Source of the DNA: Lama guanicoe
Lineage: Eukaryota
Reading direction: 5' to 3'
DNA length: 64,000 bases
Assembly (NCBI GenBank): GCA_013239625.1
Contig: MU053557.1
Span: 3,998,123-4,062,122 of the forward strand
Shown one piece after another: positions 1 to 22,956 of the stretch. Made by a program: the position numbers and the translations under genes. Every line of letters starts with the position of its first letter. Within the stretch, counting starts at the first letter, position 1. The notes under the pieces were generated by a model. That model saw nothing but the letters and a program-made list of their open reading frames with translations. It ran no database searches and was not told where the DNA came from.

Positions 1-1656
1 TTCATCTTTTTCACATTTGTTTCTTCTAGCTAGTTTTATATATATATATATTTCTATGAAACTGAATAATAATTTGACAATCAAACAAAACAATGTTAAG
101 GCATGCTATCATGCCATAGCTCCATAGCCTGTCAAGAATTAAACAGTTCCCCCTGGAAGTCTTCTTGGTCTTCAGAGACCTGGTGACTTCACCCTTGGTG
201 TCACAGATTGTTTGCCGAGTGACTTCATAATGGGGTCTGAGGTTCTCATAATGGAACCACAGCCCTCGGAGCAAGAGAACTGAGCCTTAGAAGTTGCTAT
301 CAAACTTTTAACTGAAAGAACTCCTGTGGCTAAATCACACTGTTCCCTAGGGAAAAGATGAAAACTTTCTTTGTGGCTGTCCTGGCTTTTGGCTATTTCA
401 CACGTAAGGATTTATCAAAGAATCTCAGGACGGGGTAAACAATTAATCTAAGGGAAGTAACAAGCCGACAGTAACTAGTTTTTAGATGTAGAGATTTGTG
501 AAACTTTGAAGTTTCTCTCAGAGATAAAGAATTCAAGGCCTCAACTAAAATGAGTATCAGTGGTTCAATTCATTTTCTAACATCCCAAGAATTCTGCCAA
601 AGACAGGTTTAGACTCAAGACATTTTAAGGGATGATCCATAAAGGGTGTAACTAACATTTGACAAATAATTGGTTTCCGAGTTGATAATCAATATCCTCT
701 CTCCTGCTTCTTCCTAGTCCTTGCCCACCAGACATTGCCACACACTTGTATTTTGTGTGTGAATGCACACAAATGCCTCGTACACAAAGAAGTGTCAGTT
801 TTGGACACGGCTTACCATTACAGGACAACCCGATGCTACCAAAACAAAGCTCAAGAGAGGGCTCAGCTCTTCCTAACTAACTCCAGCAAAATGCCACCAA
901 CAAGGGAGTCCATGATGGCAAACTGAATCTGCTGGCAGGATGGTGCAGGCTGAAGGGGAGGCAAGAAGCCTCAGCTGCAGCAGCTGAAAGAAGTCAAGGC
1001 TATGAAATGGGTATAAGGTACGAAGGTAACAGGAATCCTTAATAGTCTGGGTAAGCACCTGTTGACACAGAGGCCCGAACAAAGGAAGAGGCTTCCTTAG
1101 AAGCAGAGAGATTTTGGAAAAAGAGTATTTCAAGACAGGAAATAATAATTTTAAAAAATGAAGGCAGGTATCTAAGAGTTCTGTTAGCAGGTGACTAGGA
1201 GGACAACTATCAAGAACTAGACTTTTCTCTAAAATGAGTCCACACAATGTGTGAGATGCCCAGTAGCGGATGATATGCTGAGTCCCAGAGGATGAAACTT
1301 GGGTTTAAATCTCTCCGGCCTAAGCTCAGAATTAAAGCAGGAATGGGCTAAGGTTGAATTCTCAGGTGGCACATTAAGCGTCTCAGGCAAGCGAAGAAGT
1401 AAACAGTGGGAATCAGGCATGGCCAGATAAAGCTTGGGTGGAGCCACGTGTTTTTCCATGATTTTCATGGTAATTAATTTACATGGGATTACTTAATGGG
1501 TGAATTAGTTGTTCACGTCTCAACACTACATTTTCTTGGATCCTTTTTTCTAGACATTTTTTTTGCAAACAATCCTGGTAACACTGACTACGAGGTAAGT
1601 CTGCTACTTCCTGCCTAAGAAAGATTTTTCCAATCGTAAGCATATAGCATTTCTTT

Positions 1657-1737
1657 TAGGTTGACCCATATTAAACCATATGTAACTGCTAATATTTGAC
1701 CATTTTGATCTATAGAAATGCCAGTTTATATGGTTCT
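1657..1737. mobile_element. MADE2-like mariner MITE relic
   Basis: About 80 bp with inverted repeats aaccatatgtaactg (1674-1688) / cagtttatatggtt (1722-1735). Resembles the MADE2 consensus as recalled. Confidence 0.65.
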
Positions 1738-1926
1738 GAGGAAAACCAGGACACATCCCTATCTCTTACTGCTCTTTCACCTCCTTATCTATTACCAGCA
1801 ACTAAAGCTAAGTTTTGTTTTTTTAATACTTTTTCCTCCAAGTTCACTGCTGATGTTTCCATTCAAGCCCTTCTCAATTCTTGCCCATATTATTGCAAGA
1901 GCCATCTCCTTGCACTTAGTCTAATC

Positions 1927-2121
1927 CAGAGGTTGGCAAACTATGGCCACTTGTTTTTGAAAACAGAGTTTTATTGCAACACAGGCACAATCATTTGTTT
2001 ACACAGCGTCTCTGGCTGCTTTCAGGCTGCAGTAACAGAACTGAGCAACAGAGAACCTATGGCTTTTAATAGGAAAATATTCACTACCTGGCTCTTAATG
2101 GGCAAAGTTTGTCAATCCCAG
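1927..2121 (+). mobile_element. MER58A-like hAT-Charlie DNA transposon
   Basis: cagaggttggcaaactatggcc...gttttattgcaacacag...aaagtttgtcaatccc; flanked by ctaatc on both sides (degenerate TSD). Confidence 0.8.
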
Positions 2122-4149
2122 TGCTAATCTTCTCCATAATCAGAAGAATGGGCTTTCTTAAAATGCAAATCTGATTGAGGAGGCTCCCTTCTGAAAGCAC
2201 TGACTTTAAGTATCCTTAGGATAAACTTTTTGCATATCCTCCTTGACCCAGCCTCTTTCTCTCTAAAAGGAGAACTCTCCTTCTCTTACTTCAGGTTTTA
2301 GCTAACTATTTTGGGGTCCCTGCCAGTCCAGTTTGTTTCCGTATTAGAATTCCCCCTAATTAAACTATCCTTCTTTCCATACTTACATCCAATTTCAGAA
2401 GTCATTTCTTCCTTTAGGAACCCACTAAAGAATCAATTCTTTGGTAAAGCCTTCTGAGCAAACTATGTGAGCTTAATCATTAAAATATTTAGGAGATAAG
2501 AGACATAAACAGTATTTCCCAAGAGTGACTTGAATACCTTCTAATAGTATTAGTGATGATTTTAGTGAATATGCCCATGGATATCTTTTATTGCAACAAT
2601 TATATCTTTTAAAATGTTTGTTAGGAAAAATATAATTACAACTTCAAATTCAAGACATCATGGATATTCATGCTTAGAATGAATCTAATGTGAGTAGTCA
2701 AGTTTTAAAAGGCAGCCAATTCAAGAAAAATGGTTTTAAAGAAAAATGACACATGACTTTGGAAGGAATCATGAACCAAGTGACTGAAGTGTGGGAGCAT
2801 TCCTGTAAGTAATGGGAGCCACTGAAGTTCTGTAGACAGGGCAGTGGCCTGATAACCTGGATATACACGCTAACTGTGATCTCAACCTATAAAGCGTAGA
2901 ATTGTGGCAGCACTTTCCTAATCTGCTCATTACACAATTTTCATGAACTTCCCAAGTCTCTTTTTTGCCTGCAAATTATTCTGTCACTCAAGTTCCTCTA
3001 AGACCAGCCAGAATTCTCCAACTCTGGTAGTAGTGAAGGAATCAAAATAAAATGGAGAGATGGTGGTAAAATCCAAACCTGGTAGCTTCTTCCCTCACTA
3101 TTCCAGCTCCCTTATATTCAAGAGACTGAACTGTGGCCAACACCAGAGCAGGACCACACAGGGTGTCCCTATCCAGGCACAAGAGTTAAAGGGTGGGTTT
3201 TGATGAAACTAAAATGAGTCCAAAGGCCCCTGGACAGTGGTTGTAGTCATTTTTACCATTTCCCAGAATAATCTCCCCTTCTAACAAGTCACAGCTATCC
3301 ATTACACAGCCAAGAATCAGGGCTGTATTGTCTCAGCTGTCTTTCAGAGAAGAAATCCCAAAGACTCTGCTAAATTTAAGATAAAGACATTTTCAGGTTC
3401 AAAGTTTAAAAAAAGACTTATCATTATCTCATCTCTGTACAAAATAAAACAACCAAGTACTTATATTAGAAGCCATTAAGAGAGTCTGACCTATGAATTT
3501 TGTTTTAGGAACTTTCATGCAGTTATTATCAAAAGAAGTCTGTACAGCGGAAACGCGTATGCTCCATAAGAGTCAGCCTATTATGTGCCTCTAATAACGT
3601 TACCTATCCTAACTTCTGCGTGTACTGTTTTGCTAACATGTAAGTGAAAACATCAAAACCAAAACAGAACCCTCTTTTGAGAATTTAATGTGTAGCTGAC
3701 TGATAACACTCCAACATATTTGGGGAAATGTGTGAACTCCTTAAGACGTGATTCTCTAAACTAAAAACAATGTCATTGGGGTTTCAGTTCTACTGGCTGA
3801 ACCCAAGGGGTATGGGGGTAACACGGACTAAACAACTGAGATTCTGAGTCCCACCTACAACTCCAGCAGAGAAGCCTCCCTTTGCCTGTGCTGAACATGA
3901 GGTTTCAACATGAGATTTTACATAAAAAAGTTTTGTTCCTAAAATGTTTGAAAATCATAACTGTACGGAAAATCATCCTTTTCAAGACAACAATTAAAAG
4001 CAACAAATCACAGCACTCAGCCTGAAGACTTGGGTTGAGTCCTGTCTCTGCAGTTAAGTGATATTGGCAAATCTAGTAACTCCTCCAAACCTTAAGATTT
4101 TACAAACCTTTACAAATCTGAGGTTATATTTACTGCTTCACTTGCTAAA

Positions 4150-4565
4150 TATGCTCTGACCACACTGATTCCTCTTTCCACGTATTTTCAAATGTACAGA
4201 GCTCTTTCCTGCTTCAGAACCTTGGGGCAAACTGTCCTCTCCTGTAAGAATGTTTTCCCCATGATTTTCATAGGCTGGGTCTTTTTCATCGTCTAGTTTT
4301 CAGCCTGAATATTCCTTCTTTATAGATGCGTTCTATCCTACCTAGATTTACCTCTGATATTTTTCAAGTTAATATGCTTCTGTTTCCCTCATAATTCTTA
4401 TGATAACTGATAAATATTTTATTTTCTGTGTCTTTATTTTTGACCTTTTACTAAACATAAGCTTCATGAAGTCAGAAAGCAAGATTTCGGTTTATTTCGA
4501 ACACTTAACAGTGTCTGGCCCAACTTAAGCACCATAAGTACTTACTGAATAAATGAATAAATGAT
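4150..4565 (+). mobile_element. L2 3' end
   Basis: Typical L2 3' motifs ending in a tgaataaatgaataaatga tail. Confidence 0.7.
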
Positions 4566-4911
4566 TGTATGAGTGAGTTCTAGGGAGAATGGGTATGGTA
4601 ATGGGCATAAAAAGCATTTCTAAACTTAACTCTTTCTTCATAGGTAATTTAAAAGAAAATTTATCACTTGTTGTATTGGCTCAGTCTTTCAGAACTGAGT
4701 GTGTGGTTCAGAGTGAAGACTGATGCTATAGACTTTGAATTGGAATTTCAGCTCTTCTATTTAGACTATATGAGCTAGGACAGGTAACTGAATTTCAGTA
4801 ATTACCTGGAGGTTGGCTGTGAGAAGTGAGAAAGATAATGCATAAAGGAGGTCCAGCATAATGCCAGTCACACAGCAGGCCAGCAGTATCCTTGTTATGT
4901 TGCTTCCAACT

Positions 4912-5021
4912 AGAAGATCGACCAACCTGGTTTGCCTGAGACTGAGCGTTTTCTTGGGATGAGAAACTTAGAGTGCTACGGTAGGACAGTCTCAGACAAA
5001 CTGAAATAGTAGGTCACCTTA
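4912..5021. mobile_element. MER94-like hAT-Blackjack relic
   Basis: gaccaacctggtttgcctgagactg...cagtctcagacaaactg...ggtcacctta internal inverted repeats. Confidence 0.6.
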
Positions 5022-5384
5022 CCACAAATGTGCTTTCAGACCAGCGACTAGTTCTCTTTCCATATTTTACCAACTCTTTCCTTCACTCAGACCACATAAC
5101 CTATACCATAGTCATCCTCAAAGAGTACAACAGTATTTTCCAGACATTCTCAAAATCTCATCTCGTAGGCCTCCCAGGTGGTGGTCCTAATTCCATGGCA
5201 CACACTGAGGTTCCTTAGAGGGAAGAGAAACTGTACAGATGATTGCTATTCCTTCTCCCAAATTTATTACTAGCTCTCTCTTACCATCCTTTCTTCAGAC
5301 TTTCTTAGGATCCCAAGGTTTCAAGGAAATGAAAAATAACTTCTCAGTGCTAAGAATTTATCCTTAGGCTTTTAGCTTAAAAGC

Positions 5385-6825
5385 AGGGTAAATATTAAAT
5401 TTACTCTTTTAAAATACTCAATCCAGCAGTCTTTAGTACATTCAGAGTTGTGAAACCATCACCACTACCTAACTTCAGAATAATTTCCAACAAAAATAAA
5501 CCTGTATCCATTCTACCATCCCCCCAGTACCTGGCAATCACTAGTTTATATTCTCTTTATCGATTTGTCTCTTCTAGACAATCAATATAAATGGAATCAT
5601 ACAATATGTGGCTTTCTGTTTCTGGCTTCTTTCCTTGATCATAAGACTATCAAGGTTCATCCATATTGTAGAATGTATCAGTTCTTCATGCCTTTTTATG
5701 GCTAATACTCTATTGTATGGCTATACCGCTTTTTTCAATCCATCTGTCCATTAACAGACATTGGGTAGTTTACACTTTTTGGCTATTAGAAATAACATTT
5801 CTGTGAACATTCATGTACAATGTTTTGTGTGGACATATCTTTTCATTTCTCTTGGGTATACATTTCTAGGAGTGGGATCTCTGGGTCATATAGTAACTCT
5901 ATGTCTGAACATTTTAAGGGATTGTCAAACTGTTTTCCAAAGCAGCTGCAACAATTTACAATCCCATCAGCAACATGTGAGGGTTCCAATTTTCCCACAG
6001 CCTTACCAGAAATGAGTTAGTGTCCATCTTTTTTTATATATATATAATAACCATCCTAATGGGTGTGAGGTGGTATCCCATGGTTATAATTTCAATTTCC
6101 CTAGTGAGGAATTATGTTTGATATCTTTTCATGGACTGATTATCCATTTGTGTATCTTCTTTGGAAAAATCTCTATTCAAAGTCTTTGCTCACTTTTTAA
6201 TCAATTATTTACCTTTTTATTGTTCAGTTATAGTGTTCTTTATATATTTTGGATACAATTTATTGCATTTAATCGGTTATTGATTTGCATATTTTTTCCC
6301 ATTTTTGGGACTGTCTTTTCACTTTATTAATGGTGTCCTATGAAGCACAGAAGATTTTAATTTTGATGAAGTCCAGTTTATTTATTGTTGCTTATGCTTT
6401 TGTTGTCATATCTAAGAAACCACTGATGAACTCAGGGTTGTGGAGGTTTACTCCTGAGTTTTCTTCCAAGAGTTTTACAATTTTTAGCTCTTACACTTAT
6501 GTCTTTGATCCATTTTGAGTTAATTTCTGTATATCGTACGAGGTTGGGGAACTTCAACAAAAGTCCAACTTCACTTTTTGTACATGGACATCCAGTTGTC
6601 TTGGCACCATTTGTTGAAAACTGTTCTCCACTGTATTGTTGAAAATCAATTGACCATAAATATAAGTAAGGGTTTATTTAAGTTTTATGCTATTAGTCTA
6701 TATTTCCATCCTTATGCCAGTATCACAGTCTTGATTACTGTAGTTTTGCAGCAAGTTTTGCAATTAGGAAGGGTACATTCTTCTACTTTGCTGTTTTTCA
6801 AATTGTTTGGACTATTCTGGGTCCT
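5385..6825 (-). mobile_element. Old L1 (L1MB-like) 3' UTR and ORF2 end
   Basis: Antisense L1 motifs such as aaatggaatcatacaatatgtgg, aactgttttccaaagcagctg and ccagttgtcttggcaccatttgttgaaaa. It accounts for the ORFs at 5761-6865. Confidence 0.9.
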
Positions 6826-7859
6826 TCAGCAAGTTTTAAAGGTGTTATCAAAGGATAATATATAGATCTCTTTAGCATAATAGTTCTAAGAGCAACATGC
6901 AACAGGAAATAAGTGTTATAATAGATGACTTCAATAATTTATAGAATATCTGTAATGAATACTTCCTGGGAAGCAGTTTGGGCAAGCAGTTGTGTCACTG
7001 TTTATGGTAATGCTACAAATATAAATGCTCCAACGCCCTCTGAAATTACTGGCAAAAAGTTTGGTATTTTCCAGTTTTCATCCCCAGGTAGTTCTTAGCA
7101 TCTCAAAAGACAATGGCAGGACTGAAGGGAAGTACAGTTTTCTCAAATAAAACCTGCTCCTTTTCCCAGGGCGGTACTGCTATTTAAACATCCTTGTCCA
7201 TGCCTCTCCCTGATGTTTAGTACACCTATGTTCTACTGCCAACTTTCTTCTTGTCCCAGGCCACTTGAGAAATCCATTCTGCTTCTTACGCCTAGCAATT
7301 TCACAGAGATTTCATACCTAAGAATGAGCTGAGTCACCAACTTTCACATGTATCTTCTTTAGCCTACAGTTGCCTTCTTTTCAGGTTATCAAGACATTGT
7401 AAATGTGGGGCCAGAGCTTGCACAAGATAAGATTAAGGGCCAAGCACATATCTATATTTGTACACTAATTGCACATGTGCCTCCCTGCATCCTTCAGACC
7501 CCAGTTCAGGTTCTACCTGGCACTTTGTTTCTGCATTCTGGGGCAGCCAGAAGGTTTATCTGCTTGAGAACATCAAAAACCTCTGGCTGGACATTTTGCT
7601 TAAAGGCTCATCCTTTTTAAATCATACACGATTAAAAAAAAAGTCCCACTGGACCTTATATATTAAGTTTTCTACAAATAATCATGACACAGTGTTAAGT
7701 TTTAAAAAAGGGGGGGAAATGTAAGGATATAAAACGATGTGTACACAGTATGATCTAATTTTTGAAAATGTATGTATTACATATATACCAAAATATAAAA
7801 TATTAGAAAGAATACATGGTGGGACTCGTAAAAACTTCTAAATATGCCTGATTTTTATT

Positions 7860-7904
7860 AGTTTTTTTTAAATTTAAGTACAGTCAATTACAATGTGTCA
7901 ATCT
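7860..7904 (-). mobile_element. Extremely 5'-truncated L1 tail (~45 bp)
   Basis: The reverse complement gattgacacattgtaattgactgtacttaaatttaaaa resembles the L1 terminus at 9560-9600. Degenerate TSD ctgatttttatt (7848-7859) / ctggttttaatt (7905-7916). Confidence 0.6.
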
Positions 7905-8083
7905 CTGGTTTTAATTTAATGCTTATTATATGCCAGGCACTGTGCTTGGTGCTACTTAGGAATTCTCTCATTCAATATTCAAAACAATTCTACTAAGTAG
8001 GTATTGGTACTGACTCCCATTTTACAGATGATGAAATTGAGGTTTGGAGAATGTAGGGACTCATTCAAGATATCATGGCTTAT

Positions 8084-9604
8084 TACTACAGAGTTACAGT
8101 AATCAAAACAGCATGCTATTGGCACAAAAACAGACATATGGATCAATGGAACAGAATAGAGCACCCAGAAATAAACTCAAAAACATTTGGTCAATTAATC
8201 TTTGACAAAGAAGGCAAGAATATACAGTGGGGTATAGTAAAGAGTAAAGAATGTCTCTTCAGCAAATGGTGTTGGGAAAACTGGACAGCTGCATATAACT
8301 CAGTGAAGTTAGAATACTCTCTCACACCATACACAAAAACTCAAAATGGCTTACAGACTCAAATATAAGACAAGACACAATAAACATCTCAGAAGAAAAC
8401 ATAGGCAAAACATTCTCTGACATAAATCTTAGTGATGTTCTCCTAGGGCAGTCTACCCAGGCAATAGAAATAAAAGCAACAATAAACAAATCAGACCTAA
8501 TTAAACTTATAAGCTTTTGCAAGCAAAGGAAACCATAAGTAAAACAAAAAGAGAACCTACAGAATGGGAGAAAATATTTGCAAAAGATGAGACTGACAAG
8601 GGCTTAATTTCCAAAATATATTAACACCTCATACAACTTAATAACAAAAAAACAAACAATGCAATCCAAAAATAGGCAGAAGACCTAAACAAGCAATTCT
8701 CCAGTGAAGACATACAAATGGCCAACAGACACATGAAAAAATGCTCAATGTCGCTAATTATCAGAGAAATGCAAATCACAACTACAATGGGATATCACCT
8801 CACACCAGTCAGAATGGCCATCATTCAGAAGTCCACAAGGGATAAATGCTGGAGAGGCTGTGGAGAGAAGGGAATCCTCCTACACTGCTGGTGGGAATGT
8901 AGTTTTGTATAGCCATTATGGAAAACAGTATGGAGATCCTCAAAAGACTGAAAATAGACTTACCACATGATCCAGCAATCCTACTCCTGGGCATATATTC
9001 AGAGGGAACCTTAATTCAAAAAGATACACGCACCCCAATGTTCACAGCAGCACTATTTATAATAGCCAAGACATGGAAACAACCTAAATGTCCATTGACA
9101 GATGGCTAGATAAAGAAGTTGTGGTATATTTATATGATGGAATACTACTCAGCCATAAAGAAGAATAAAATAATGCTATTTGCAGCAACATGGGTGGACC
9201 TGGAGAGTGTCATTCTAAGTGAAGTCAGCCAGAAAGAGAAAGAAAAATACAACATGATATCACTTGTATGTGGAATCTTAAAAAAAAAAAAAGGCAAATT
9301 TATTTACAAAACAGAAACAGACTCACAGACATAGAAAACAAACTTACGGTTATCAAGGGAGAAGAGGGTGGAAAGGGACAAATTGGGAGTTCGAGATTTT
9401 TCAGATACTAAGTACTATATATAAAATAGATAAACAACAAGTGTATACTGTATAGCACAAGGAACTATATGCAATCTCTTTTAATAACTTATAGTTTAAA
9501 AGAATATGAAAATGAATATATGTATGTTCATGAATGACTGAAGCATTATGCTGTACATCAGAAACTGACACATTGTAAACTGACTATATGTCAATAAAAA
9601 CATG

Positions 9605-9676
<72 letters not shown>

Positions 9677-9678
9677 TG
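8084..9678 (+). mobile_element. 5'-truncated artiodactyl-type L1 (ORF2 C-terminal remnant, 3' UTR, tail) with 16-bp TSD
   Basis: ORF2 peptides [42 protein letters not shown] and MEYYSAIKKN, with frameshifts. TSD agatatcatggcttat at 8068-8083 and 9679-9694. Confidence 0.97.
9605..9676. repeat. Compound (TA)n(CA)n microsatellite
   Basis: Seen directly; it occupies the position of the L1 poly(A) tail. Confidence 0.95.
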
Positions 9679-10700
9679 AGATATCATGGCTTATGAGGGG
9701 AGAAACCAAAAAACAAGTCCAGGAATCTGACATCCAGAGCCCTCAAGCTTAATTTTGCATTATCTTGATTAGAATCTTATATTTGACCAGAGTCTTCGAA
9801 TTTTTCAAAACAATCTTTCATGTTTATCCTTTTGTTTCATGAATGTTTAATAAACACCTAGTAATTTCCAAACACTGTGCTAGGTGCAGGAAAACAGGGA
9901 AAAAATAAGATATTATTACTCTCAGGCTATTACTTTAGATAACACAGGTATATAATTAGAAGCCTGCTATAGCTTTTAGCAAGTATTTTCCTAAACAGGG
10001 CACCTAAGAAAGCCATACCAATACGGAATTGTAGGCAGGGATGAGAATATTCCCTTTTTATACATAACAAGAAAGGACTCCAAAGTTAATTGTTTTGCCC
10101 AAGTCAAATAGGAAGTACAGTTACAGAAGATGAACAATGTTTTTATTATTTCACAGTAGCTCCTATGTGGCTATTGTTAATTTTTTTTAATGGACCACTT
10201 CATGAAAAATGCAACTGCAAAAGTCCACTGACTATAATTTATCATGAAATGTAGTAATTGGCTTGCTGCTGTTATTATATTTCTGCTGAATAAGATAAGT
10301 ATTTTCACTAACGTTTTCCACAGTTATCTTTTTATCCTGTTCTTGACCATTATGCTCTTTGTCCCCCACATTAAGAATTCTTCCTGTTTGAAGTTCATAG
10401 AGAACTTTTACAGTGACTCTCAAAGAGCTGAACTCAGTAGGTACACATTAATTACGGTTGTTTTACAAGTAAGATAATCCTGGAGAAAAGTAAAAAGATT
10501 TTCCCGGGGTTTCCTCAGGGTCCCTCCCCCACTTCTTAACATACAAGTTTACACCTTTGCTAAAAGCTCTAATAATTTTTCACCATGATAACAAGGTTAG
10601 AAGGGTCTCCAGAGTGAAGGAAGTAGTGAGGAGAGAGGCAAATCTTTGTATGGGATATTTGTAAGTCAGGAGTTTACAAATCAAGAACTGTATTCACTTA

Positions 10701-10956
10701 CAGACTTGTGGTTACCGGGGGGGGGGTAGAGGGTGGGAAGGGATAGACTGGGATTTCAAAATTGTAGAATAGATAAACAAGATTACACTGTATAGCACAG
10801 GGAAATATACACAAAATGTTATGATAAATCACAGAGAAAAAAAATGTGACAATGAGTGTGTATATGTCCATGAATGACTGAAAAATTGTGCTGAACACTG
10901 GAATTTGACACAACACTGTAAAATGATTATGAACCAATAAAAAATGTAAAAAAAAA
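10701..10956 (+). mobile_element. Young L1 3' UTR fragment with perfect 18-bp TSD
   Basis: TSD aagaactgtattcactta at 10683-10700 and 10957-10974; AATAAA plus A tail. Confidence 0.95.
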
Positions 10957-11595
10957 AAGAACTGTATTCACTTAAAATTCCTGTAATAGTACAACTAAGT
11001 AGGAGGAAGAAAGGTTGTATTTAATACAGATGGTCACTAAATATTTGTATTAATTTCCCTTAGAGCTTTGAACCTCACTCTAGAAGTTCAACACAGTGGA
11101 AAATGCAGAAAGACCGAAACACCTGAAACATGAAGTGATTTTCCTTCGTTCGTCATGAGTGAACCTATTCGAATTGTGCACCATCTTTCCTTCAAAATGA
11201 TGAATTCATTATATTTCCTTATTTTTAAAAAAATCACTAAATCTTATCCTATGGAAATCCCCTCTTTAACTGAAGATACAGTTAATGAGATGCGCCTGAA
11301 TTGTGTTTGTTTCTAAAAATATAGGGCTGAATAGGAAGTGACCTTTGACTTTGAGCAACTCACAGTTTAACAGGTTATTTGGACAATTCATTTATGCAGT
11401 GAATGTTCTTTAAGTCCTCATGAAACTAAGAGATTTGGCTAGATTCTGGGTCCTCAATGGTAATGAAAATAAGTCTGTGTCCTTGTGCAGTTTACAGTCA
11501 AGCAAGGGAGCAAGAAAACAAATGATTATTAAAAACATGATAAAATGTGAGAAAGAGAAAAACAACCCATGACATCCAGGAGCTGACTTTGGCAT

Positions 11596-12086
11596 TGCTA
11601 TAGTTTGGCCTCCTACTCACAGCGAGGCCTTGGTGTTCTAGTCAACATAAACAATTTCACAGAACATTAACAGCAGACAAAGCTGCCCTGTAACCGTGAC
11701 AAATCAAGACAAAGACAATATTACTCCATAATTATGGATGAACACAGGCAAAACACAAACATACATTCCCCCATCTAGGCTAGTACGAGTGACTGCTGCT
11801 TCCTTACCAATTACAGCCTTAGCCTGTGCCTATCTTCCCTCCTTCTAAAGACGACTTCTTAAGATACCACATCATAGAATTACCCTCACTTCCTGAGGGC
11901 AACCAATCCAAAGCAAAGTCCTCCAAAAAGTTTCCCCCAACTAACCCAATAATCTCAAATCCTACAATAATTCCTTCCTAATAATCTCTTACTGAGATAC
12001 CCTATGGCTTCCATGTGCGTTCTCCCTCACAGTGATGAGTAATAAACCCAACTTGTTCAACTGAAGTATTCCTGCTGCTCGCTGAC
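11596..12086 (+). mobile_element. Old ERV1-class solo LTR (subfamily uncertain)
   Basis: LTR-like composition; AATAAA at 12041-12046 about 40 nt before a ...gaca end. Boundaries approximate. Confidence 0.6.
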
Positions 12087-12766
12087 AAATGCAAAACTTG
12101 AAAGTGGCAACATCATGCCTGCTCAAACTCTCTTTTCTCACTTCTCTCTGTAGGGGCATTGACAGGGGTAGGAAGACTATGAAAATAAGTGATACTTGAA
12201 CCCTTAAATGAAAGGGAGGGAATATTCTATTCATTTACTTATTCATTCATTAACTCATATGCTACCTTGTTCCAAAAATAATTTTAGGTGGCTGATGTTA
12301 TTCAGTGGATTCAGAGGTACAGAGTCAGAGTAGAGGGCACTCCCTGAGAACTGTCATAAAAAGACAACACTATGATCTAAGGAAACACCTAAAGACCATG
12401 GAACCTAACATGGGATGGGGGTGCCCCAAATGACACTGATGTTTAACGGGATACCCCTCCCCCAACAGCTGAGGCTCCCTCTTCCCTCTCCTCAACCAGG
12501 GACGACATATTAATCACCCGCTGTCAGGTTCTACCTACCTGCTATCTCTCATAAGCATCTTCTTCCCTTTACTAAAGACGCTTCAGTCCCATCCTCATCC
12601 TCACTTCCTATCCCTTACTGGTGGCAAGTCTGTTCTCAGGTTCTAAAAGAAAAAATCCTCATTTTTTTCCTGTTAGTCTTACAGAATTTAAGAAGCCCCA
12701 GTTCAATCTTCAGGCAAATGCAAGTCAAGTCACTCGTAGTCAAACCTAATGATTTTCAAGTAGAGC

Positions 12767-12945
12767 AGTACTGTTCTCACATGAGGCAGTTATAATACGT
12801 GGGGATTTGACTTTTGCGTGTCAGTGACTGGAGTGGCACTGCCAGCATTCAGTGGAGGAAAGCCCTGCAAGGCACGGGACAGTCCCACGTAGTAAAGAGC
12901 CGACCCACTCAAAATGCCAACAGTGACTCCCACCGAGAAACACCT
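12767..12945 (+). mobile_element. MER20-like hAT transposon
   Basis: gggacagtcccac...caaaatgccaacagtg...gagaaacac resembles MER20. Confidence 0.7.
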
Positions 12946-13241
12946 CACCCACAGATGGAAACTGTCACACCCAGTCCTCCTGCTTCTCCCCATGCCCACA
13001 CCAGACATCAGCGATCAATGGTAGTACACTCTACAGAGCTGGATTTGGCTTCAAAAAGCTTTCTCAACATAGTAATCCAAGCATACCCTGCCCGTCAGAT
13101 TTGGCATGGAAGACAAAACTTATTTGTCATTCCTGCCCTTACCTTTTTCTTTTTAACACTAAGGAAGCTTCTTTCTTCTTGAGATGAAGTCTTCCCCTGG
13201 CACCTGAGCCTTGTTCCACTTCCTTGCCTTGGTCATCTGAC

Positions 13242-13626
13242 TGTAACAAAGAAGAAAAAACCTGAGATATACATGACAGCCCATTCTCAAGGCTCCCAGG
13301 CTTGACCTTTAATAAAGGTGCAACACTTTCCATACAGAGATAAAAAGTTACAAAACAGAGAAGAACATCTGTCTTGTTGGAGGAACAGCTGCAAGCACAA
13401 AGTATTCTGGCACCAAAAAGTTTGCAACAACCAGCCACACTTCCTTCCCTTTTAGCATAAAAGCCTGAATTCTAACTCCAGTAAGATGGTTCTTGGGGAC
13501 ACTAGTTCACTATCTTCTTGGTTTGCTGGCTTTCCAAATAAAGTAGCTATTCCATGCCCCAACACCTTGTCTCTTGATTTTCTGGCCGGTCATTCAGCAA
13601 GCAGTACGAGCTTGGACTCAGCAACA
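13242..13626 (+). mobile_element. ERV1 solo LTR (MER41-like, artiodactyl type), 385 bp
   Basis: TG...CA termini (tgtaaca...cagcaaca); 4-bp TSD tgac/tgag; cataaaa TATA-like box at ~13456; AATAAA at ~13537. Confidence 0.8.
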
Positions 13627-16600
13627 TGAGTCATCTCCTTCTGAGACAGGGGCCCTGTGGGGAATGTGAGCTCTGTGGCTGGGACCCTGACCTATCCCAA
13701 CAGGTCTCTCACACAGTAAATGCCTGCCTGCCAGCATTACCTCTCTGTACACTTGCTCCTGGTGCAGGGAGTGAGCTGCACCCTCCAGTGGGGAAACCAC
13801 GTATAGTATATTAAACTTCTTTGGAAGAATAACACCCAAAAGAAAATACAACTCAGTGACTTAAAAAAAAAAAAAAAGAGTAGGGAGGAGGGAGGAGGGG
13901 TAGGAGGAAGTTGGGAGGCGGGGAAGATTTCCATGGCTCCTGTACCTGAGAAGTCCAGAGGAATCTCTGACTTCAGGCATGCCTAGATCCTGTCTCAAGA
14001 AATGTTGCCAGAATTTTTTTCTGTCCATTTTTGGGGATCTATCCGCGCTTTCCTTGATGTCGTTTTCATTCTCAGGCTTTTGGCCACCCCATCCCACCCC
14101 AACCCCGGTGGTAGACCCTCAGTTCTAGAAGTTAAAATTTCAATAGAAGAAAGTTTTCCTTTCCTAAAATTTCTAGTAATGAGATCTGAAGCTTATTAGG
14201 TTCGTTGAGATAAGATTCCTGGATCAGTCTTTACGGCTACAAGCAAGTTTAACTCCTACTGAAATGGACTGAATTACAAGGCACTGCAGGAGCCAGGGGT
14301 AAGCCAGCCCTACTATATGGACTAGAAGAGGATAAAGAATTATCTCCCAAAGGAATACTGAAGCACTACTGCCAGGAGAAATGAAAGCAAACAAAAACAT
14401 GCATTGGCACTACCCTCTCAGATGCCTGATTCCCTCCTCCAAATCTGAGGTGGTCCTCAAGTCAGCCCAAGCTCAATCCCTTGCTGTTTTCCTGCCTTTA
14501 CCACACGTAAGTATTTAACCTATTTGTATCATAATAAATTATGATACTCCCAGGAGCTGAAACAATCTGCTGTCTTGGTAGAAAGCAAGGAAGTGCCCAT
14601 CCCAGAGAGCTAAGCCTTCTGGAAAATACACTTTCATACCCACACAAAATGCTTTGACTTCCTAGTCCACAAACCATGGGCAGTCTGGTATCCTCCCAAT
14701 TTCAGAGGACCCCTCGCAGCATTTATGTTCTCATGGTTACTTCCTGCTCTGTACCCCTAATTCTGCAGAGTTCTCCATCAGCCCCTCATTTCACCTTTTA
14801 ATACCAATTCCTTATTCTCCACCACTTTGGTGCATGTTAGACTCCCCATTTTCCTTCATTCCTCAAGCATTTGCAAGGCTATTCAGAGTAACAAATGTTT
14901 CCTGAAGGTCTGGGATACCAGAGGAGGTTAATGGCTAACACAGCACAGGAAATACATCAGGAGTATTTTGGTTAAAGGTGATGAAATCCAATAGAAACTT
15001 ATCTTAGGTCAAAGAATTGTGTTTATGTCATTAGGAGGATCTAGGGTGGGCCTTAATTCAAGCACAGCAGTATCCACAGACTTAAGCAATACCATGAGTC
15101 TTACTGTCCACCTCTGCCATCTGCTAGTCTATTGAATTTCACTAAATGCTGGTTTCATCATCTCCCATACAGACTCTATCTACATAATGAGATAATGGGT
15201 GCTACCATGCGCCCTCCTTGCTCGAGAGCCAAAAGGAAAAGGGTTGGGGTGGGAAGAAGGGAAATCATGGGGCTCAGACAACACCCCTTCATCAATATGC
15301 AAATGCAATCCCCTGATATGGGAAATAGAATTTTTTTAAGTAGTTGTCTTATAACCCCCAAGATTAAATTTAACCATAGAAATAAGAATTAAATCACATC
15401 TACATTGCAATTTGGGTTAAGAAATAGTCCATAAACAATCATCATTTAAAATATTTGTCATATTTTAAGAAAGTATAGCATATTAAAGAATGAATCTCAT
15501 GATTCCAATTTGAAATTTTTAATTATTGATTTAAACTTAGATTTTAAGTTGAGAGAATAAGAATTTTATTAAGACTGTAAATATTATTGACATTTGAAGA
15601 GGTGTCACTTGCCATATTTATATCTAATTGGTAGAGTTGTAACACTTATTTATGTGGGAAGGTTTTTGCTAAACAATTGAAGTGCTTAAAAAAATTGAGT
15701 ATCTTTATCCAATCGTTCATTAACTCCTTCACTCAACAAAACTGTGGGCCCATCACCCCATCTGTTGATGTCTGAGAAACTGATTCACCTGGATATTTGA
15801 TTGTCTCCCTTTACCAAACTGAATGTTGAAATTCATTCACTTCTCACCACAATTATTTCCTTGCACCTAGTCCAATGTCTGGCCCCAGAGCAAGCACTCA
15901 GAAAATATTTGTGGGATAAATGAATAAACCATGTCAGGCTCAGAATGCAACCAGATTTTGAAAATTACAACTGCTTTCTCCCTCTTACTTTGGAATTTAA
16001 GGACCATCAGCTTCTATCCCAGAACTGGGCTCGCCCAGATGGGCCCAATTCACCAGCATCTTCCATTTCTTTCCTTGTAACAGCTGAATAAGGTTGATTC
16101 ACTTACGTGCTCATTTAGCCAAGGGCAAGTGAGTCATAGGGTCTGTGAGGGAAAACTGAGTACTAGGTGCAGCTGGGACATGCTGTTTGTGAAGCAAACT
16201 AAGACTGAAATAAGTAGCCTGCAACCAATGCATATTGGGCCTTGGAAATCTGATTATCAAGTTACAAATGTATGCTTTTTAAGGTTTAAAATTTAAGCAG
16301 AAACCAGCAGTTTGGTCCAAATGAAAAATGAGAAACAAGGGCCTTGTTCCTTAATGTTCACGCAGAGCTCGTGTTTATAGAAGTCTCCCACAAAGCTTTT
16401 TCTTTTCTTGCCTAATTACCACCTTGTGTTTGGTTTTGAAACTGCAATTCTCTGTGCCTGTATCTTAACAGATGACATCTTTTCAGAGCATTTCCTTATG
16501 TAACCTGGGGAAATTTAAGATGCCTCGAAAGTAAATTGCAGAAATATCACACGCTAAGAATCCAGCCCTTGCAATTTTAAATACAGCTGAGAATAAGGAA

Positions 16601-16697
16601 GAAAAAGAAGCCTCTGAACAGTCAAATAATAAATGCTAACCTTTGCGGAGTATTTGCTACGTGCCAGGCACTCTTTTAAGTGGACTACAAACATTAC

Positions 16698-16732
<35 letters not shown>

Positions 16733-16733
<1 letters not shown>

Positions 16734-17305
16734 TGGAACCCTTGAGCAATGCTGATGAGAATGTAAAATAGTGCTGCTGCTATAGAAAAACTAAAAATAG
16801 AAATACCATAAGATCCAGCAATTCTACTTTGGGGTATATATCCAGAAGTATGAAAAGCTGGATCTAGACGAGATAGCTGCACATCTGTGTTCACTGAAGC
16901 ATTATTTACAATAGGCATTTAGGTGTACATTGATGGATGAACGAAATATGATATACACACAATGGAATATTATTCAGACTTAAAAAGGAAGAAAAGTCTG
17001 ACACATGGAGGAATCTTACAGATATTATGCTAAATGAAGGAAGCCAAACACAAAAGGACAAATGTGTGTGTCTACTTACATGAAAGACAAAGTAGAATGG
17101 TGGTTACCAGAGGCTAAGGTGAAGGCGGGGGAGATGTGTGTGGTTGTTCAGGGGTTAGGCTGTACATTCAATTTGGGAAGATAAAGTTCTGGAGGTGGAT
17201 AGTGGTGTAGTTGCACAACAGCATAAATATACTTAATACCACCGTTCACTGAAAAATGATTAAAATGGTAAATTTTGTTATAAATATTTTACCACAATTA
17301 AAAAG
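16733..17305 (+). mobile_element. Old L1 (L1MA/MB-like) 3' end preceded by a 31-nt A run (16701-16731)
   Basis: gatccagcaattctactttggggtatatatcc, aatggaatattattcag and a terminal ttttaccacaattaaaaa. Confidence 0.85.
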
Positions 17306-17437
17306 AATCATATAACGAATCATTCATGTACAGACTCAAGATTGTTTGTACTAGTGGGGCTACCAGCCTTCCTTTTTGATACCTATGGTAATAAAATCTA
17401 TAAATATCCAAAAAATTAAAAACAACAAATGAGGTAG

Positions 17438-17915
17438 TGTAGTAAATTAAAGATGGCCACACATTCTTTACCAGTCCTTCCATTAAGAGGTGACGACTTA
17501 GCCTCCTCCCCTTGAATCTGGGCTGGCTAGGTGGCTTCCCTGACCCACAGAGTGTGACAGAAGTAATGCCTGGGACTTCCAAGGCTGGCTCACATGAAGT
17601 CCCATCCTTGAGCTTCCTCCTGTATTCCCTGGAACAACTCACTTTCTGCTCTATTTCCAAGGGCTGCCTACCAGCCCCTGGGGCTTTGCCCAGGCAAACA
17701 AAGCAGAGGGAGAAACCTCATTAGGTACTCTAAAGGACAGCTCTGGCGGAGCCCCTGCAGGTCTTGCAGCCTAAACTGCCAACAATGTAACTTCCATTTG
17801 AGCCTGAGGTTAGAGCTGCCCAGGTGAGCCCAGTCACCTCTCAGAAGCAGAACAAATTATTGGGTTGAACCACTAAATTCGGCGGTGGTTTCTTAGGTAG
17901 GTACCATAACGATGT
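17438..17915 (+). mobile_element. MLT1-type (ERVL-MaLR) LTR
   Basis: tgtagt...aagatggccac...cctccccttgaatctgggctggc start and ccactaaattcggcggtggttt end motif. Confidence 0.75.
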
Positions 17916-18165
17916 CCACTTTTGCTTGACAAACCCGAGGCTTATAGTTGAAGTCTCAAGGTCACAGAGTGAGTACCCCGTGATTGACTGAATCTTTGGA
18001 CGTGGCCCACAACATGGAGGGTCTACTGTAAAGTGATACCCGAATTTTCAACCCCCAACTCCAGATGTGTTCAAGAGTAAACTGTATTTAAGGGCAAGAA
18101 TGCGGGATTTGGAGGGTAAAAATCTTGGGTTTCAATCTAGCTGTGTGACAATGAGAAATTATCTC

Positions 18166-18614
18166 TGTGGACACAGAATGTCGCATGCCATTTCAGTAAC
18201 CAAAGGATAGTGTAGCCACCAAGCCCTCAGCCACCGCAGGTGCCCCTCACCCTGCACCCTGAGAGATTCAGGATAGAGAAAAATAGCATACTGGCGAGAC
18301 AGGGTGCACAACAAAATAGTGATTTCAATAAACCTAGACTCTCACGTCTTCCCATACATATAAAAGCAGTAAATTCATTAACTTAAAAAGTCAATTTTTT
18401 CTTTAATTAGCAGTAATTCTTTGATATTCAACTATGCGGTTTCTATGTGTTATCACTGCTTTTTGCAAAAACTTCTACATGTCCTGGCTCATTCCTTACC
18501 TCTTCGGAACACTCCCTAGGAGCTGAGAGGCTGTTCCTCAGGTTTACGTCTTCAGTAAGTCCGACGAATAAAACATAACTCATTTTTCGGCTGTGCGTCT
18601 TTTTTCAGTCAACA
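18166..18614 (+). mobile_element. ERV solo LTR (449 bp) inserted into a MIR, ~550 bp upstream of FBXO38 exon 1
   Basis: TG...CA termini (tgtggac...gtcaaca); near-TSD atctc/acctc; TATAAAA at 18359-18365; AATAAA at 18567-18572; MIR sequence on both sides. Confidence 0.8.
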
Positions 18615-18959
18615 ACCTCTCTGAAGATAATTTTTATATGGAAAAAAAGGAGTAAAGCTGGTTCCTGCCCACATGTCGGAGTGGTATAGGGTTTTTGAGA
18701 CACAGGTGTGAAAAACCCTATAAAAACTTACAAAATACTGTTAAATACGTACAGAGACAACGTGCCAAAAGTAAAGAAAGCTGATTTAACGTTGTCAACT
18801 TTAACTGCCCCCTACCGTGTTCTTCCTCGCAAAAAAAACTTTCTCTTTTCAGACGAAGGAATTCTGGAAAAATCTCTACTGAAACCTGGCTACTCCACAA
18901 ACAAATGCAGCGCCCAGGTGCTCATTCAAAGGCACAGACTAGCAAACCACACAATCCAG

Positions 18960-19600
18960 TAACTATTTGTCGGCGTCGGACTCCACGCTTCCGGCGTCGC
19001 GACGCTGTCACGTCAACGAAGGTCGCTCCCCGAGCCCGTCCCTAAATGCCACGCTTACCATGGCTTCCCGGCCTGGACGCTCACGTTCCACACCCAACAT
19101 GGGCACGGGGAGCTGGCCCCGCCCCGGATGCCTACGCTCCGGACGTGCTCAAGGATTGGCGGAAGCGGAAGCGCCCGGGTGGTGGGGGCCGCGGGAAGTG
19201 TTTGTCTCGTTTCTCCCTCCCTCTCCACCGCGATAACAAACGGAGGGCCGGCATAGGTGAGGCGGCGGCCGGGTGGGCCGGGGGGACCGGCGGCTGGCTG
19301 CGGAGCCGGGACTGCGTGCTGCGGGTGGAGGCGGCCGGATGGAGCTCCGGGGCCCCCGATCACTTGGGCTCTCGGTCTCCGGCTTTGGGCCTAGAGCTCT
19401 CCGAAGAGCAGGGATTGAGTTTGTGGTTCTTGGCGTTCGAGGTCCTGGTGGTGGGGTTTGCCACCCTCTCTGAACCTGGCCCAAGATCCCAGCAGCACAC
19501 ATAACCCTCGCAGAGTCTCGATTTCCTCACCAAAATGGGGGTTTTGGCCTGGCTAACTTCTGGGACCCCATCCCACTGCGGGCGTCGCTAATACCACGAT
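18960..19600. promoter_or_regulatory. CpG island / TATA-less, probably bidirectional promoter of FBXO38
   Basis: The region is GC- and CpG-rich. Motifs: GC box GGCCCCGCCCC 19115-19125, inverted CCAAT (ATTGG) 19155-19159, tandem ETS/GABP CGGAAGCGGAAG 19160-19171, GGGAAGTG 19193-19200, minus-strand CCGGAAG 18988-18994, CRE-like TCACGTCA 19008-19015. Confidence 0.9.
19160..19256 (+). other. FBXO38: FBXO38 exon 1 (5' UTR; start approximate)
   Basis: Donor TAG|GTGAGG at 19256/19257 lies inside the CpG island, followed by G-rich intron. There is no ATG in the exon. Confidence 0.8.
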
Positions 19601-19679
19601 TTTACTGTTAAGTCAGTGTTTAAGCTAATGAATTAAGGCATTTGGTCAGTTTACTGAGGGGATGTTTCTGAGCAGGACG

Positions 19680-19865
19680 CAGTGAATACAACTTTGAGAG
19701 GCGGCCAGCCCAGTGATCGGAAGTCCTGAGTTCTAGTGTTACCTCGTCCACCGACTCATTCTCTGACCTTGCCCAGATCTGTTACCCTCTGTGCTGCACA
19801 GTTTACAGATCTGTAAAATGAAGGTGTTGGATTTCTCTGATTGCCTCTCCTAGCTCTAGAATCAG
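19680..19865 (+). mobile_element. MIR
   Basis: cctgagttctag...tgaccttg...atctgtaaaatgaagg core. Confidence 0.7.
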
Positions 19866-22800
19866 ATTCTCAACTCCCTTTCAAGGAGCCCTTCCTTAGA
19901 GACAGACCTGAAAAGCATCTCTTCTCTACATCCTGCGTAGCCAGGAGGTGGTTTATCAGAGGTGTCTTCCCTGTGTTTTCCAGACACCAAGCCGACCAAG
20001 GGCAACTGGGTATTTAGGAAAGTTCCTGTGTTTCCTGTGCAGTGAGCAGCTTTGTTCTGAAGACTTTGATTTAGAAAGCGATTCCAGCAGAGTAAAAATA
20101 CACAAATGTGGAAAATAGGACACCTTGTTTTTTTTGTTTGTTTGTTTGAAAACTGCTACTCATTTGCTGGTTTACTTTGAGCAAATACTTTGCTTTCTCT
20201 GGACTGGAGAATTCTCATCTGGTAAATAGAGGTGTTAGATTGGGACAAAAGTTCTTAATCCCCTTTCCCATACTCTCAGCACAACTGAGGAATAAAATAA
20301 TTGTTCTATAAAACCATGATTTTTCTGGAGGAGGGGAAAGGTGGGGTGTGGAAGGTGTTATTATGTAGCCATCTAGATTGAAACATCTGTGCTTCTAGTT
20401 TTCAGCTTTTATTTTTGACAATTATTGGTTTAAGTGACCACTAAGTTTCTTTTCCTCTCTTCAAAATTTGCAATGCTGTGATTCTTATGTCCTCTTTGGG
20501 TAAAGAATATAGGCTTTTGTGTTTGTTTAAATGACTGTGCCTGGAAGTACATACTTTATTTTTAGTAAGAAGGATACTAAGGCATAGAATAAGAGAAAAA
20601 GGAAAAACCAGATTTTAGTAAGGTAAAGTGACAGTGAAATAAAATTAAACTTGAGCTAAAGTTAAAGGCCTGGATCTGTTGTTCAGCACTGGTACTTGCT
20701 GGATTTGTGACTTTGGTCAAGCCAGTTTACCTCTCTGATTTTCACTTTCCTTGTCTGGAAAATGAAGGGTTGGACTGGATGATTCCTCGACTTTTTCAGC
20801 ACTATAATTGTTTTCTTTTCTTTCTTTTTTTTTTTTTCTTTCCTGAGTGGCTCAGTGGATGTGGTGTGGCATTTCTTTAGAAAAGAGAGGCTGTGATAAG
20901 TAGTAGACATAGAAGATCTATGGTGCAGAATGGTGTCAAATTAAGTGACATGCAGTATTACTTTGACATGAGCAAGCTGAAGGCAGTAGAAACTAAAGAA
21001 AGGTATTAGAAACGTGAAGGGTTGACCAGATAGGATGACTGAAGACACTGAAAAGTTTTACATGGGAGATATTTTTGGTAAGGTTAATAAAAGTAAGTTA
21101 TACTAATTGGAGTGGCTGAGTTGTAAGAAACTGGTGGTAGAATCTCTCTCTACTCTGAGACTGTAAGCTTCATGGGAAGAAAGACTGTCACCCCCTAGCA
21201 CTTGGTAGGCAGTAATAAATAATTGAAAGAGGGAATGATTGGATGGATGAATGGATAGATAATAGCAATTTAAAAAAGGAGTTTTTCCAGAGAATTGTTA
21301 TTAATTAGATACAGTGTGGGAAATTGATTCAGCATTGTGCAAGTTTTATAAAAGAAGAGGTCCCTAAGTTTTATGATTAGTTGTAAGGGAAGTCAAGAGA
21401 AGCTGGTTTATCTCTATACTCTATAAAGTATGTTGGTAAGAGACAAACACCCTGGAGAATCCGGTGTGATCTGTGGAAGAGAGTTATTAGTAGAATAAGT
21501 CAAGCATGGAGGAAGATGTTGACAAGATGGAACAGGTATAAGTCGTACTATTAGGGAGTAAAGGAGTGGATTTATGTAGGACTTTTATCAGTATCAGTGA
21601 TTGTCAGAATTGTGAACAGTAAGTGTTAAAACTTCTATAATGAAAATAGAGAATTAAAAGGAAAACAACTTGATTTTTGCAAGAAAATGTTGGAGCTCCC
21701 CTTCAAGAGCCAGAAATAGCCTTGAGGGTTAAGGTTTAAAAGATAAATTTAGGAGCAATCAGGGTGAATTACATTAGTAGAGGATAGTGTAGTCCAGTTT
21801 GGGATAGGAAGAGGTTTGAACTGGCAGGCTGGAAGGAGAGGAGCACACCTAAGAGAAATTGTGTTATGTAAGGGACCTTCCTTACCTTGTTGAGTTTCTC
21901 AAGTTTAAAGAATGCTCGCAAATAATTGAGGCTTATGCCTTAGAATGTATTTGGGCTGCCAGGACAAAAACGATTCTTCCCATGGCTAAGGTCTGCTAAA
22001 TAGCCAGTCACAGTATGACTATAGGAGACCCAGGGCTGTTGTAGGCTACCGTGTGGGAGCCTAAATTAGGTGGGCCATAAGCTCTAATTTATGAAGGAGG
22101 GTGTGGTCAGCAGCCGTTCTGTCAGGGCATCCAGAAGCGCAGCTCAGAGCACTGGGGCACAGCTCCGGAATGCAGGCAGCCAGCCGAGGTGCAGACTACC
22201 GATTTGATGACAGGTTGTATATTGTAGGCTGGGAAGGTTAAATCCCAGCCTGAGCTCTGACACTTAATATATGCCCTTAGCGAGTGATTTATACTCTCGG
22301 GTCCTGTTTGTCCATCTGAAAATTGAGGGACCAGTCTTGGATAGGAACGTTTGAATGAGCTTCCATGTCTCTGTGAAGCCCCTGAAATTGTGTATGAGTC
22401 TGGCTGTGTTTTGTTTTTCTCTTGGATGGATGTACAGCTTTCTTCATCGTCTCAGATAGGTTTGTGACCCACAAAAATGAAGAACTGTGTGATTAGTCCC
22501 TGAGGGCCCCTTCAGCTGTTAACATTCTGGGATTCAGAATGACGTTTCTTTGAGATTTAGAATCCCAGCCTCTAGAACTTGCTGACCTTAGAAAATAACA
22601 TATAGTGCTGCAAAATATAGTCTCTCCATATTTGTACTCACCTCTCGCCCTCCTTGACTCCTTTGCTAGGCCTGCTCCAGTGGGTTAGATACCTTTATCT
22701 ACTGCTGATAACTGGAATTTCCGTCCTTTCCTCTTTCCCTTTTAACCTTCTGCTGCTTTGGACCTTCCCTACCTTGTTGAGTTTCTCAAGAGGCACGTGG

Positions 22801-22910
22801 TGATATTTTGGAGATAGGGCAGGAAGAAACCAAGACATAGAAGGCTAGTCAGTCATGGCAGTCTTCTGTTCTCACCTGCTTTTATCCCTCATCCCACGAA
22901 AAGACAAGCA

Positions 22911-22913
<3 letters not shown>

Positions 22914-22954
<41 letters not shown>
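22914..22954. repeat. (GA)20 microsatellite
   Basis: Seen directly. Confidence 0.97.

Positions 22955-22956
<2 letters not shown>

Follow-up and report, generated by a model that had tools for sequence, protein, structure and literature searches.

The closest described relatives of the transcript considered here, a spliced minus-strand RNA that would start beside the FBXO38 promoter in a stretch of the Lama guanicoe genome, are predicted gene models from two camelid species. The stretch, called the window below, comprises 64,000 nucleotides (nt) of contig MU053557.1 of assembly GCA_013239625.1 (positions 3,998,123 to 4,062,122). Isoforms X1-X3 of RefSeq LOC105097008 in Camelus dromedarius (XP_064340491-95) and the model XP_072811248.1 in Vicugna pacos hold the same exons, and their remaining exons map to the contig that holds the window (C1176, whose coordinates are used for exons outside the window). 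In structure these Camelus and Vicugna models, labelled LOC105097008 or acrosin inhibitor(-like), show no difference from the gene described here; they are automatic and in part 'uncharacterized'. The distal 5' exons thus already figure in automatic RefSeq predictions for these two camelids, and a retrocopy in the guanicoe genome appears to have recorded them independently.

A second described system is the human gene FBXO38-DT, which is classed as non-coding. One source mentions it as a spliced gene with introns and expression in K562 cells (10.1101/2025.02.07.636966), so that the human gene named in an initial annotation of the window does exist; further mentions of FBXO38-DT were found in the literature, none of which, in the passages concerned, deals with its structure. 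That annotation, made from the letters of the window, had proposed a divergent minus-strand transcript made up of a first exon of a single codon, with its end at 19059, an exon 2 (13240-13143) and an exon 3 (12642-12539). Among these three features only exon 2 finds independent support in the sequence comparisons reported here. Together with a first exon that was not part of the proposal, here named exon A (18942-18500), exon 2 very probably provides an alternative, distal 5' end for a Kazal-type gene that resembles sperm acrosin inhibitors, and is not a separate microprotein gene.

The retrocopy and the camelid gene models

The window's own 2.05-Gb assembly was searched with exon 2 and its flanks, and one extra copy of exon 2 was found on another contig (L002), with a match that ends exactly at the exon borders. 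Positions 1503-1600 of L002 match exon 2 at 91% identity, and the preceding positions 1055-1502 match window 18938-18500 at 88.9% identity and end at the donor. The copy fuses window 18938-18500 directly to 13242-13143 with the intervening 5,259 nt missing; in the parent sequence GTAAGG follows 18500 and AG precedes 13240. From there L002 continues in the same order into the minus-strand pieces 3942227-3942156, 3940896-3940839, 3936998-3936938 and 3936075-3935687 of C1176, which lie 56-62 kb beyond the window start. The insert (L002:1051-2205) begins at the equivalent of window position ~18942, carries ATTAAA and an A-run near its 3' end (about L002:2200-2211) and is flanked by an exact 13-nt direct repeat (1038-1050 and 2206-2218; chance about 6e-5). 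At four of the five junctions in L002 the parent has canonical GT and AG; the exception is the acceptor of the third exon, where CG now stands in the parent. Because the introns are missing, a poly(A) signal with an A-run is present and a target-site duplication encloses the whole, L002 is best read as a processed (L1-type) retrocopy of a spliced minus-strand RNA. A heritable retrocopy requires expression in the germ line or early embryo, and on this reading the copy shows that such an RNA was expressed there in an ancestor. The downstream part of the decayed copy still matches Kazal_1 at 32.2 bits, its own Kazal frame being broken by stops and frame shifts.

The second line of evidence comes from proteins. 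The query was a contiguous 42-residue frame made up of the exon-2 peptide and 10 intron-encoded residues, and among longer proteins one of 14 candidates matched it, the dromedary XP_064340493.1, at 97% identity. This protein, 'uncharacterized protein LOC105097008 isoform X2', has 209 residues and Kazal domains, and its cluster at 90% identity consists of 10 camelid models under the names 'LOC105097008' and 'sperm-associated acrosin inhibitor(-like)'. Four of the ten (P0001, P0005, P0006, P0007) start at the ATG of exon A, hold exon 2 in the frame given by the initial annotation and end in a Kazal domain. Of the other six, three begin with a proximal first exon (C1176:3942724), two begin within DNA that lies upstream of the next exon, and one is the classical 88-residue precursor. 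Models that hold both exon A and exon 2 come from two species, dromedary and alpaca. The alpaca model P0006 (XP_072811248.1, Vicugna pacos) maps to 18583-18500, to 13240-13143 and to six exons further downstream, of which four match at 100% identity and the last ends at C1176:3935998; its first 60 residues are those obtained by translating 18583-18500 joined to 13240-13143 in the window. From ~18942 to its last exon the gene would span about 81 kb.

Against a Kazal_1 (PF00050) cut-off of 21 bits, P0006 scores 59.4 and the 88-residue precursor P0008, which consists of a signal peptide and one Kazal_1 domain, scores 61.5. The nearest solved chains are those of ovomucoid, bull seminal proteinase inhibitor IIA and SPINK6. 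The name 'acrosin inhibitor' was given by NCBI on the basis of similarity, and inhibitory activity against acrosin or trypsin-like proteases is a prediction. A SPINK13-like identity was considered and dropped in favour of the NCBI names and the closest matches found.

The retrocopy and the gene models agree to the base on the same two junction borders and so make up two independent lines of evidence. Both junctions, the exon borders and the open frame that leads from 18583 through exon 2 into the Kazal precursor can be regarded as established at the level of sequence. The initial annotation was right in placing a spliced minus-strand RNA beside the FBXO38 promoter, and the borders and the frame it gave for exon 2 are exact. 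Its further suggestion, that the transcript is a non-coding or de novo divergent gene, does not agree with the isoforms that found support, which are predicted to run into a protein-coding Kazal gene with an open frame of 209 codons. We infer where exactly the RNA starts, whether the promoter motifs are active, at what level and in which tissue it is expressed today, and whether translation begins at 18583 or at the classical signal-peptide ATG.

The RNA would arise as follows. The FBXO38 CpG island would act as a bidirectional promoter, and minus-strand RNA would start at 18942 or a little upstream of it, with a CCGGAAG and TGACG pair lying shortly before the start. It would then pass through the 443 nt of exon A to the strong donor at 18500, be spliced over 5.26 kb to exon 2, and be spliced again from exon 2 over about 70 kb into the Kazal-type serine-protease-inhibitor gene, which also has proximal first exons of its own. 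A strong donor ahead of the first poly(A) signal favours productive elongation of promoter-divergent RNAs, and exon A contains neither AATAAA nor ATTAAA, the first minus-strand poly(A) hexamer lying past the donor at 18407. An old interspersed repeat covers the last ~120 nt of exon A, donor included; 40 matches, drawn from 692 first-look candidates, were scored, and 38 of them cover query positions within 502-641. The 18500 donor appears to be transposon-derived because it lies inside this repeat.

Several observations weigh against this reading of the locus. The XP_ models are automatic RefSeq predictions. L002 is about 10% diverged and so would record an ancestral RNA. Its third exon corresponds to C1176:3942226-3942156, whose acceptor is now CG and not AG, and none of the 10 models uses it. 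L002 is 88-91% identical to its parent in the 5' exons, but this figure drops to ~82% in the Kazal exon and to ~63% in the last exon with the 3' untranslated region. Retrocopies are often truncated at the 5' end, and the start site may therefore lie further upstream; the 19059 donor may serve as a minor alternative. The CG before C1176:3942226 suggests that the acceptor was lost after the retrocopy had formed, and the change of third exon taken with the fall in identity suggests later rewiring or gene conversion within the tandem Kazal cluster. The falling identity could be due to gene conversion, to the loss of a paralogue or to very rapid evolution; nowhere in the genome was a copy found that matches the 3' part of L002 better than C1176 does.

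Other parts of the Kazal gene region deserve description in their own right. The piece at C1176:3942156-3942226, which lies some 56 kb beyond the window start, is an exon of the signal-peptide type and has an ATG of its own. It was considered as the signal-peptide exon of the present gene and rejected, as the mapped RefSeq models use C1176:3939040-3938963 for this purpose. The proximal alternative first exon, at C1176:3942724 on the minus strand and some 55.4 kb beyond the window start, ends in ...GAAAG/GTAAGA, the slash marking the exon border. An alternative 3' exon at C1176:3933006-3933113 (minus strand), found in the 242-residue and 187-residue models, takes the place of the final, cysteine-bearing part of the Kazal domain, and these two isoforms would therefore lack an intact domain. 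Kazal-like pieces also occur on the opposite strand, at C1176:3952143-3952194 and C1176:3900712-3901011 (both plus). Since one such plus-strand piece lies inside the 70-kb intron, the long minus-strand RNA would be antisense to a further Kazal-type gene of the cluster.

The age of exon 2 is a separate matter. The initial annotation had called the transcript lineage-specific, and this holds in so far as the exon-2 peptide was found within a protein model only in camelids. It fails in another respect, as an open genomic frame resembling exon 2 was found in mammal-like DNA of ENA metagenome assemblies. A search free of a word index, covering 1.84 billion representatives, returned this single match, an unspliced genomic frame of 41 residues on ENA metagenome contigs that shares 72% identity over exon 2 and its acceptor tract. 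The frame is probably DNA of another mammal; if so, the DNA of exon 2 is older than the camelids.

Possible translation of the N-terminal extension

The isoform that contains exon A and exon 2 could be translated from the ATG at 18583, from which no stop interrupts the frame in exon 2 or in the later exons that lead to the Kazal precursor. The product would carry a charged extension of 121 residues ahead of the precursor, the signal peptide would become an internal hydrophobic segment, and the inhibitor would be membrane-anchored or non-secreted. We regard such translation as rather unlikely, and the evidence on it is divided.

In both the dromedary and the alpaca models the 121 codons of the extension are in frame with the Kazal precursor. 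When the retrocopy is compared with its parent over the open-reading-frame (ORF) part of exon A and over exon 2, the substitutions fall as [1,1,4] and [1,2,6] on the three codon positions, so that 10 of 15 are at third positions (binomial P about 0.0085, calculated by hand). The rate of substitution in this ORF part (15/182) equals that in the non-coding part of exon A (30/355), and the third-position skew is therefore in part an excess at those positions and not a deficit elsewhere. Between the dromedary and alpaca models, one of the first 60 residues differs, which is the part encoded by exon A and exon 2, and the signal peptide and the mature inhibitor differ at two of 22 and none of 66 residues; residues 61-121 differ at five of 61 and look unconstrained. 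About one in three residues of the exon-2 frame is different in the ENA metagenome DNA. With an RNA start at about 18942, two upstream ATGs with short upstream ORFs would precede 18583. The annotation pipeline that produced the models picks the longest ORF by design, which also counts against a translated extension. Taken as a measure of coding constraint on the extension, these comparisons give weak hints.

The predicted topology follows from the composition of the long form. Its sole hydrophobic peak is at residues 124-138 and its extension contains 20 lysine and arginine and 20 aspartate and glutamate residues; if the extension is translated, this segment becomes internal and a membrane-anchored or non-secreted inhibitor is predicted. 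A broader proposal may be put forward as speculative and unlikely: that in camelids the bidirectional promoter of FBXO38 yields an N-extended acrosin inhibitor with the basic exon-2 peptide in a cytoplasmic tail and the former signal peptide as membrane anchor. If true, a cell-bound 'sperm-associated' inhibitor would have come about through capture of the CpG promoter of a neighbouring gene and of a splice donor of transposon origin.

Splice sites, promoter and locus setting

The distal alternative 5' end preferred here has to be set against the gene structure first proposed for the window. In that structure the RNA would join the one-codon exon ending at 19059 to exon 2 and exon 3 and would either encode a basic microprotein of 35 residues or be a non-coding RNA sensitive to nonsense-mediated decay. 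The individual readings on which it was built are accurate. The minus strand does contain gggaagccATG/GTAAGC, with the ATG at 19061-19059. The 98-nt segment 13240-13143 is preceded by ttttttcttctttgttacag and ends AAG/GTAAGG, and the 104-nt segment 12642-12539 lies behind GACTAAC (12678-12672) and ttttttcttttag and ends CAG/GTAGGT. Joined by hand, the three segments give the 35-codon frame as written, and its stop, a TGA at 12638-12636, does lie more than 50 nt before the next donor (97 nt ahead of that at 12539).

All of the sites in this structure score fairly well. The scores come from a rough position-weight matrix built on consensus frequencies and are approximate: 8.84 for the 19059 donor, 9.47 and 11.24 for the acceptor (13240) and donor (13143) of exon 2, and 8.0 and 10.77 for the acceptor (12642) and donor (12539) of exon 3. 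Baseline counts were taken over 268 kb, that is, both strands of 134 kb of this contig. Donors of the form ATG/GT that score at least 8.84 are rare (three in 268 kb), against 0.82 per kb for donors of any kind scoring at least 8. Acceptor-donor pairs of the quality of exon 2 number four (0.10 expected per 6.5 kb of one strand) and pairs of the quality of exon 3 number 15 (0.36 expected on the same scale). Exon 3 is what chance gives, and exon 2 stands out. The donor of exon A (18500) scores 11.06, and no other minus-strand donor from 19200 to 18400, that at 19059 included, is as strong.

The microprotein structure is very improbable on the whole of this evidence. Its second exon is real, and minor isoforms would escape a single retrocopy or a set of protein models. 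Both the retrocopy and four of the 10 models enter exon 2 from 18500 and not from 19059, and none of the 10 models begins with the N-terminus that was proposed. Exon 3 is missing from L002 and from the five models that were mapped, and these five, like L002, also lack the 19059 donor. Within the genome exon 3 was found at its own place only, and window 19120-18939, which holds the ATG/GT, likewise has no second copy. A word-based search among 5.8 billion proteins returned none of 23-74 residues that shares words with the exon-2 query. That all of these are chance sites without a minus-strand transcript today, the retrocopy being the relic of an extinct RNA and the gene models over-predictions, could be argued from the one retrocopy-used acceptor that has since changed from AG to CG, and is scarcely credible when the retrocopy and the models place both junctions at identical bases, when models from dromedary and alpaca hold exon A and exon 2, and when the splice sites of both exons are intact and strong.

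The distal alternative 5' end also fits the arrangement of the locus. A plus-strand gene, which we take to be FBXO38 from its protein, has coding exons from about 27.6 kb of the window onward. The CpG island reported at its start is borne out by composition: 18900..19450 has a GC content of 0.66 and a ratio of observed to expected CpG of 0.93, and the GC content reaches 0.70 in 19000-19399. The island sits between FBXO38 (plus) and exon A (minus), which point away from each other in the layout of a bidirectional pair. The retrocopy 5' end (~18942) and the donor of FBXO38 exon 1 (19257) are 315 bp apart, neither of them being a mapped start site. The TGACG and CCGGAAG motifs on the minus strand may act as promoter elements.

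The coordinates of these features are collected in Table 1. Directly upstream of the polypyrimidine tract of exon 2, window 13253-13298 is a short piece of a repeat present in high copy number; query positions 3-55 are covered by 38 of the 40 matches scored, at 88-95% identity. In FBXO38 intron 1, window 22850-22980 (plus strand) is a microsatellite of the GA/AG type that reads as an alternating E/R run in two frames. Rfam at its gathering thresholds gave no matches in window 11000-20000.

Table 1. Features of the FBXO38 promoter region and the distal 5' end of the Kazal-type gene (window positions; a slash marks an exon border).
Feature	Position	Strand	Remarks
FBXO38 non-coding first exon	19160..19257	+	3' end read as ATAG/GTGAGG at 19257; borders putative
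Two CGGAAG (ETS-type) cores	starts 19160, 19166	+	Motif positions; precede FBXO38 exon 1
ATG/GTAAGC of the initial annotation	19053..19061	-	Unsupported as exon end; ~120 nt upstream of retrocopy 5' end
Candidate promoter motifs TGACG (starts 19015) and CCGGAAG (18994-18988)	18988..19015	-	~50 nt upstream of retrocopy 5' end
Exon A, predicted first exon of the long Kazal-gene isoform, 443 nt	18500..18942	-	Ends GAG/GTAAGG, donor 18500/18499; L002 match
Old interspersed repeat over exon A 3' end and donor	18480..18616	.	38 of 40 scored matches, 74-81% identity
ATG of the RefSeq 209-residue ORF	18581..18583	-	Context AAAatgA
Intron 1, 5,259 nt, GT...AG	13241..18499	-	Absent from retrocopy
Exon 2, 98 nt	13143..13240	-	L002 91%; P0001 97% over exon-2 peptide; P0006 residues 28-60
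Start of intron 2, which runs off the window	1..13142	-	Acceptor C1176:3940885 (RefSeq, about 70.4 kb) or C1176:3942226 (retrocopy, about 69.0 kb)
Exon 3 of the initial annotation	12539..12642	-	Unsupported; after exon 2 would place stop at 12638-12636

Comparison with known systems

If the distal exons are used as proposed, a housekeeping-type CpG promoter, that of FBXO38, is common, head to head, to the distal isoform of an 81-kb reproductive protease-inhibitor gene. The retrocopy indicates that this isoform was already made in the ancestral germ line, with a different downstream wiring, and it provides a worked example of how retrocopies within the same genome can serve as splice evidence. 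Should the extension prove to be translated, the product would be a membrane-tethered Kazal inhibitor; otherwise the exons are an ordinary alternative 5' end that has already been annotated. The RefSeq models are silent on the sharing of the FBXO38 promoter, on the retrocopy and on translation of the extension.

The human FBXO38-DT resembles the camelid transcript in being a spliced gene named as divergent from FBXO38. Unlike FBXO38-DT, the camelid divergent RNA would run on into a Kazal-inhibitor gene and carry a long ORF. Processed pseudogenes known as fossils of ancestral splice forms offer a second parallel: L002 is likewise intronless, lies on another contig and has a target-site duplication, a poly(A) signal and an A-run, and it serves as evidence of splicing while its own Kazal frame is broken.

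For the protein, the closest comparison is with single-domain Kazal inhibitors from the male tract (pig sperm-associated acrosin inhibitor, 1BUS, 2N52). Literature under the name 'sperm-associated acrosin inhibitor', by title mostly studies of pig or boar sperm, does not in the parts seen describe an N-extended form. Like the male-tract inhibitors, the classical camelid precursor P0008 combines a signal peptide with a single Kazal_1 domain, and it matches bull seminal proteinase inhibitor IIA (1bus_A, E 9e-13) and SPINK6 (2n52_A, E 5e-12). The long camelid isoforms are unlike them in adding, by prediction, 66-154 residues upstream of the signal peptide, drawn from distal exons up to 81 kb away.

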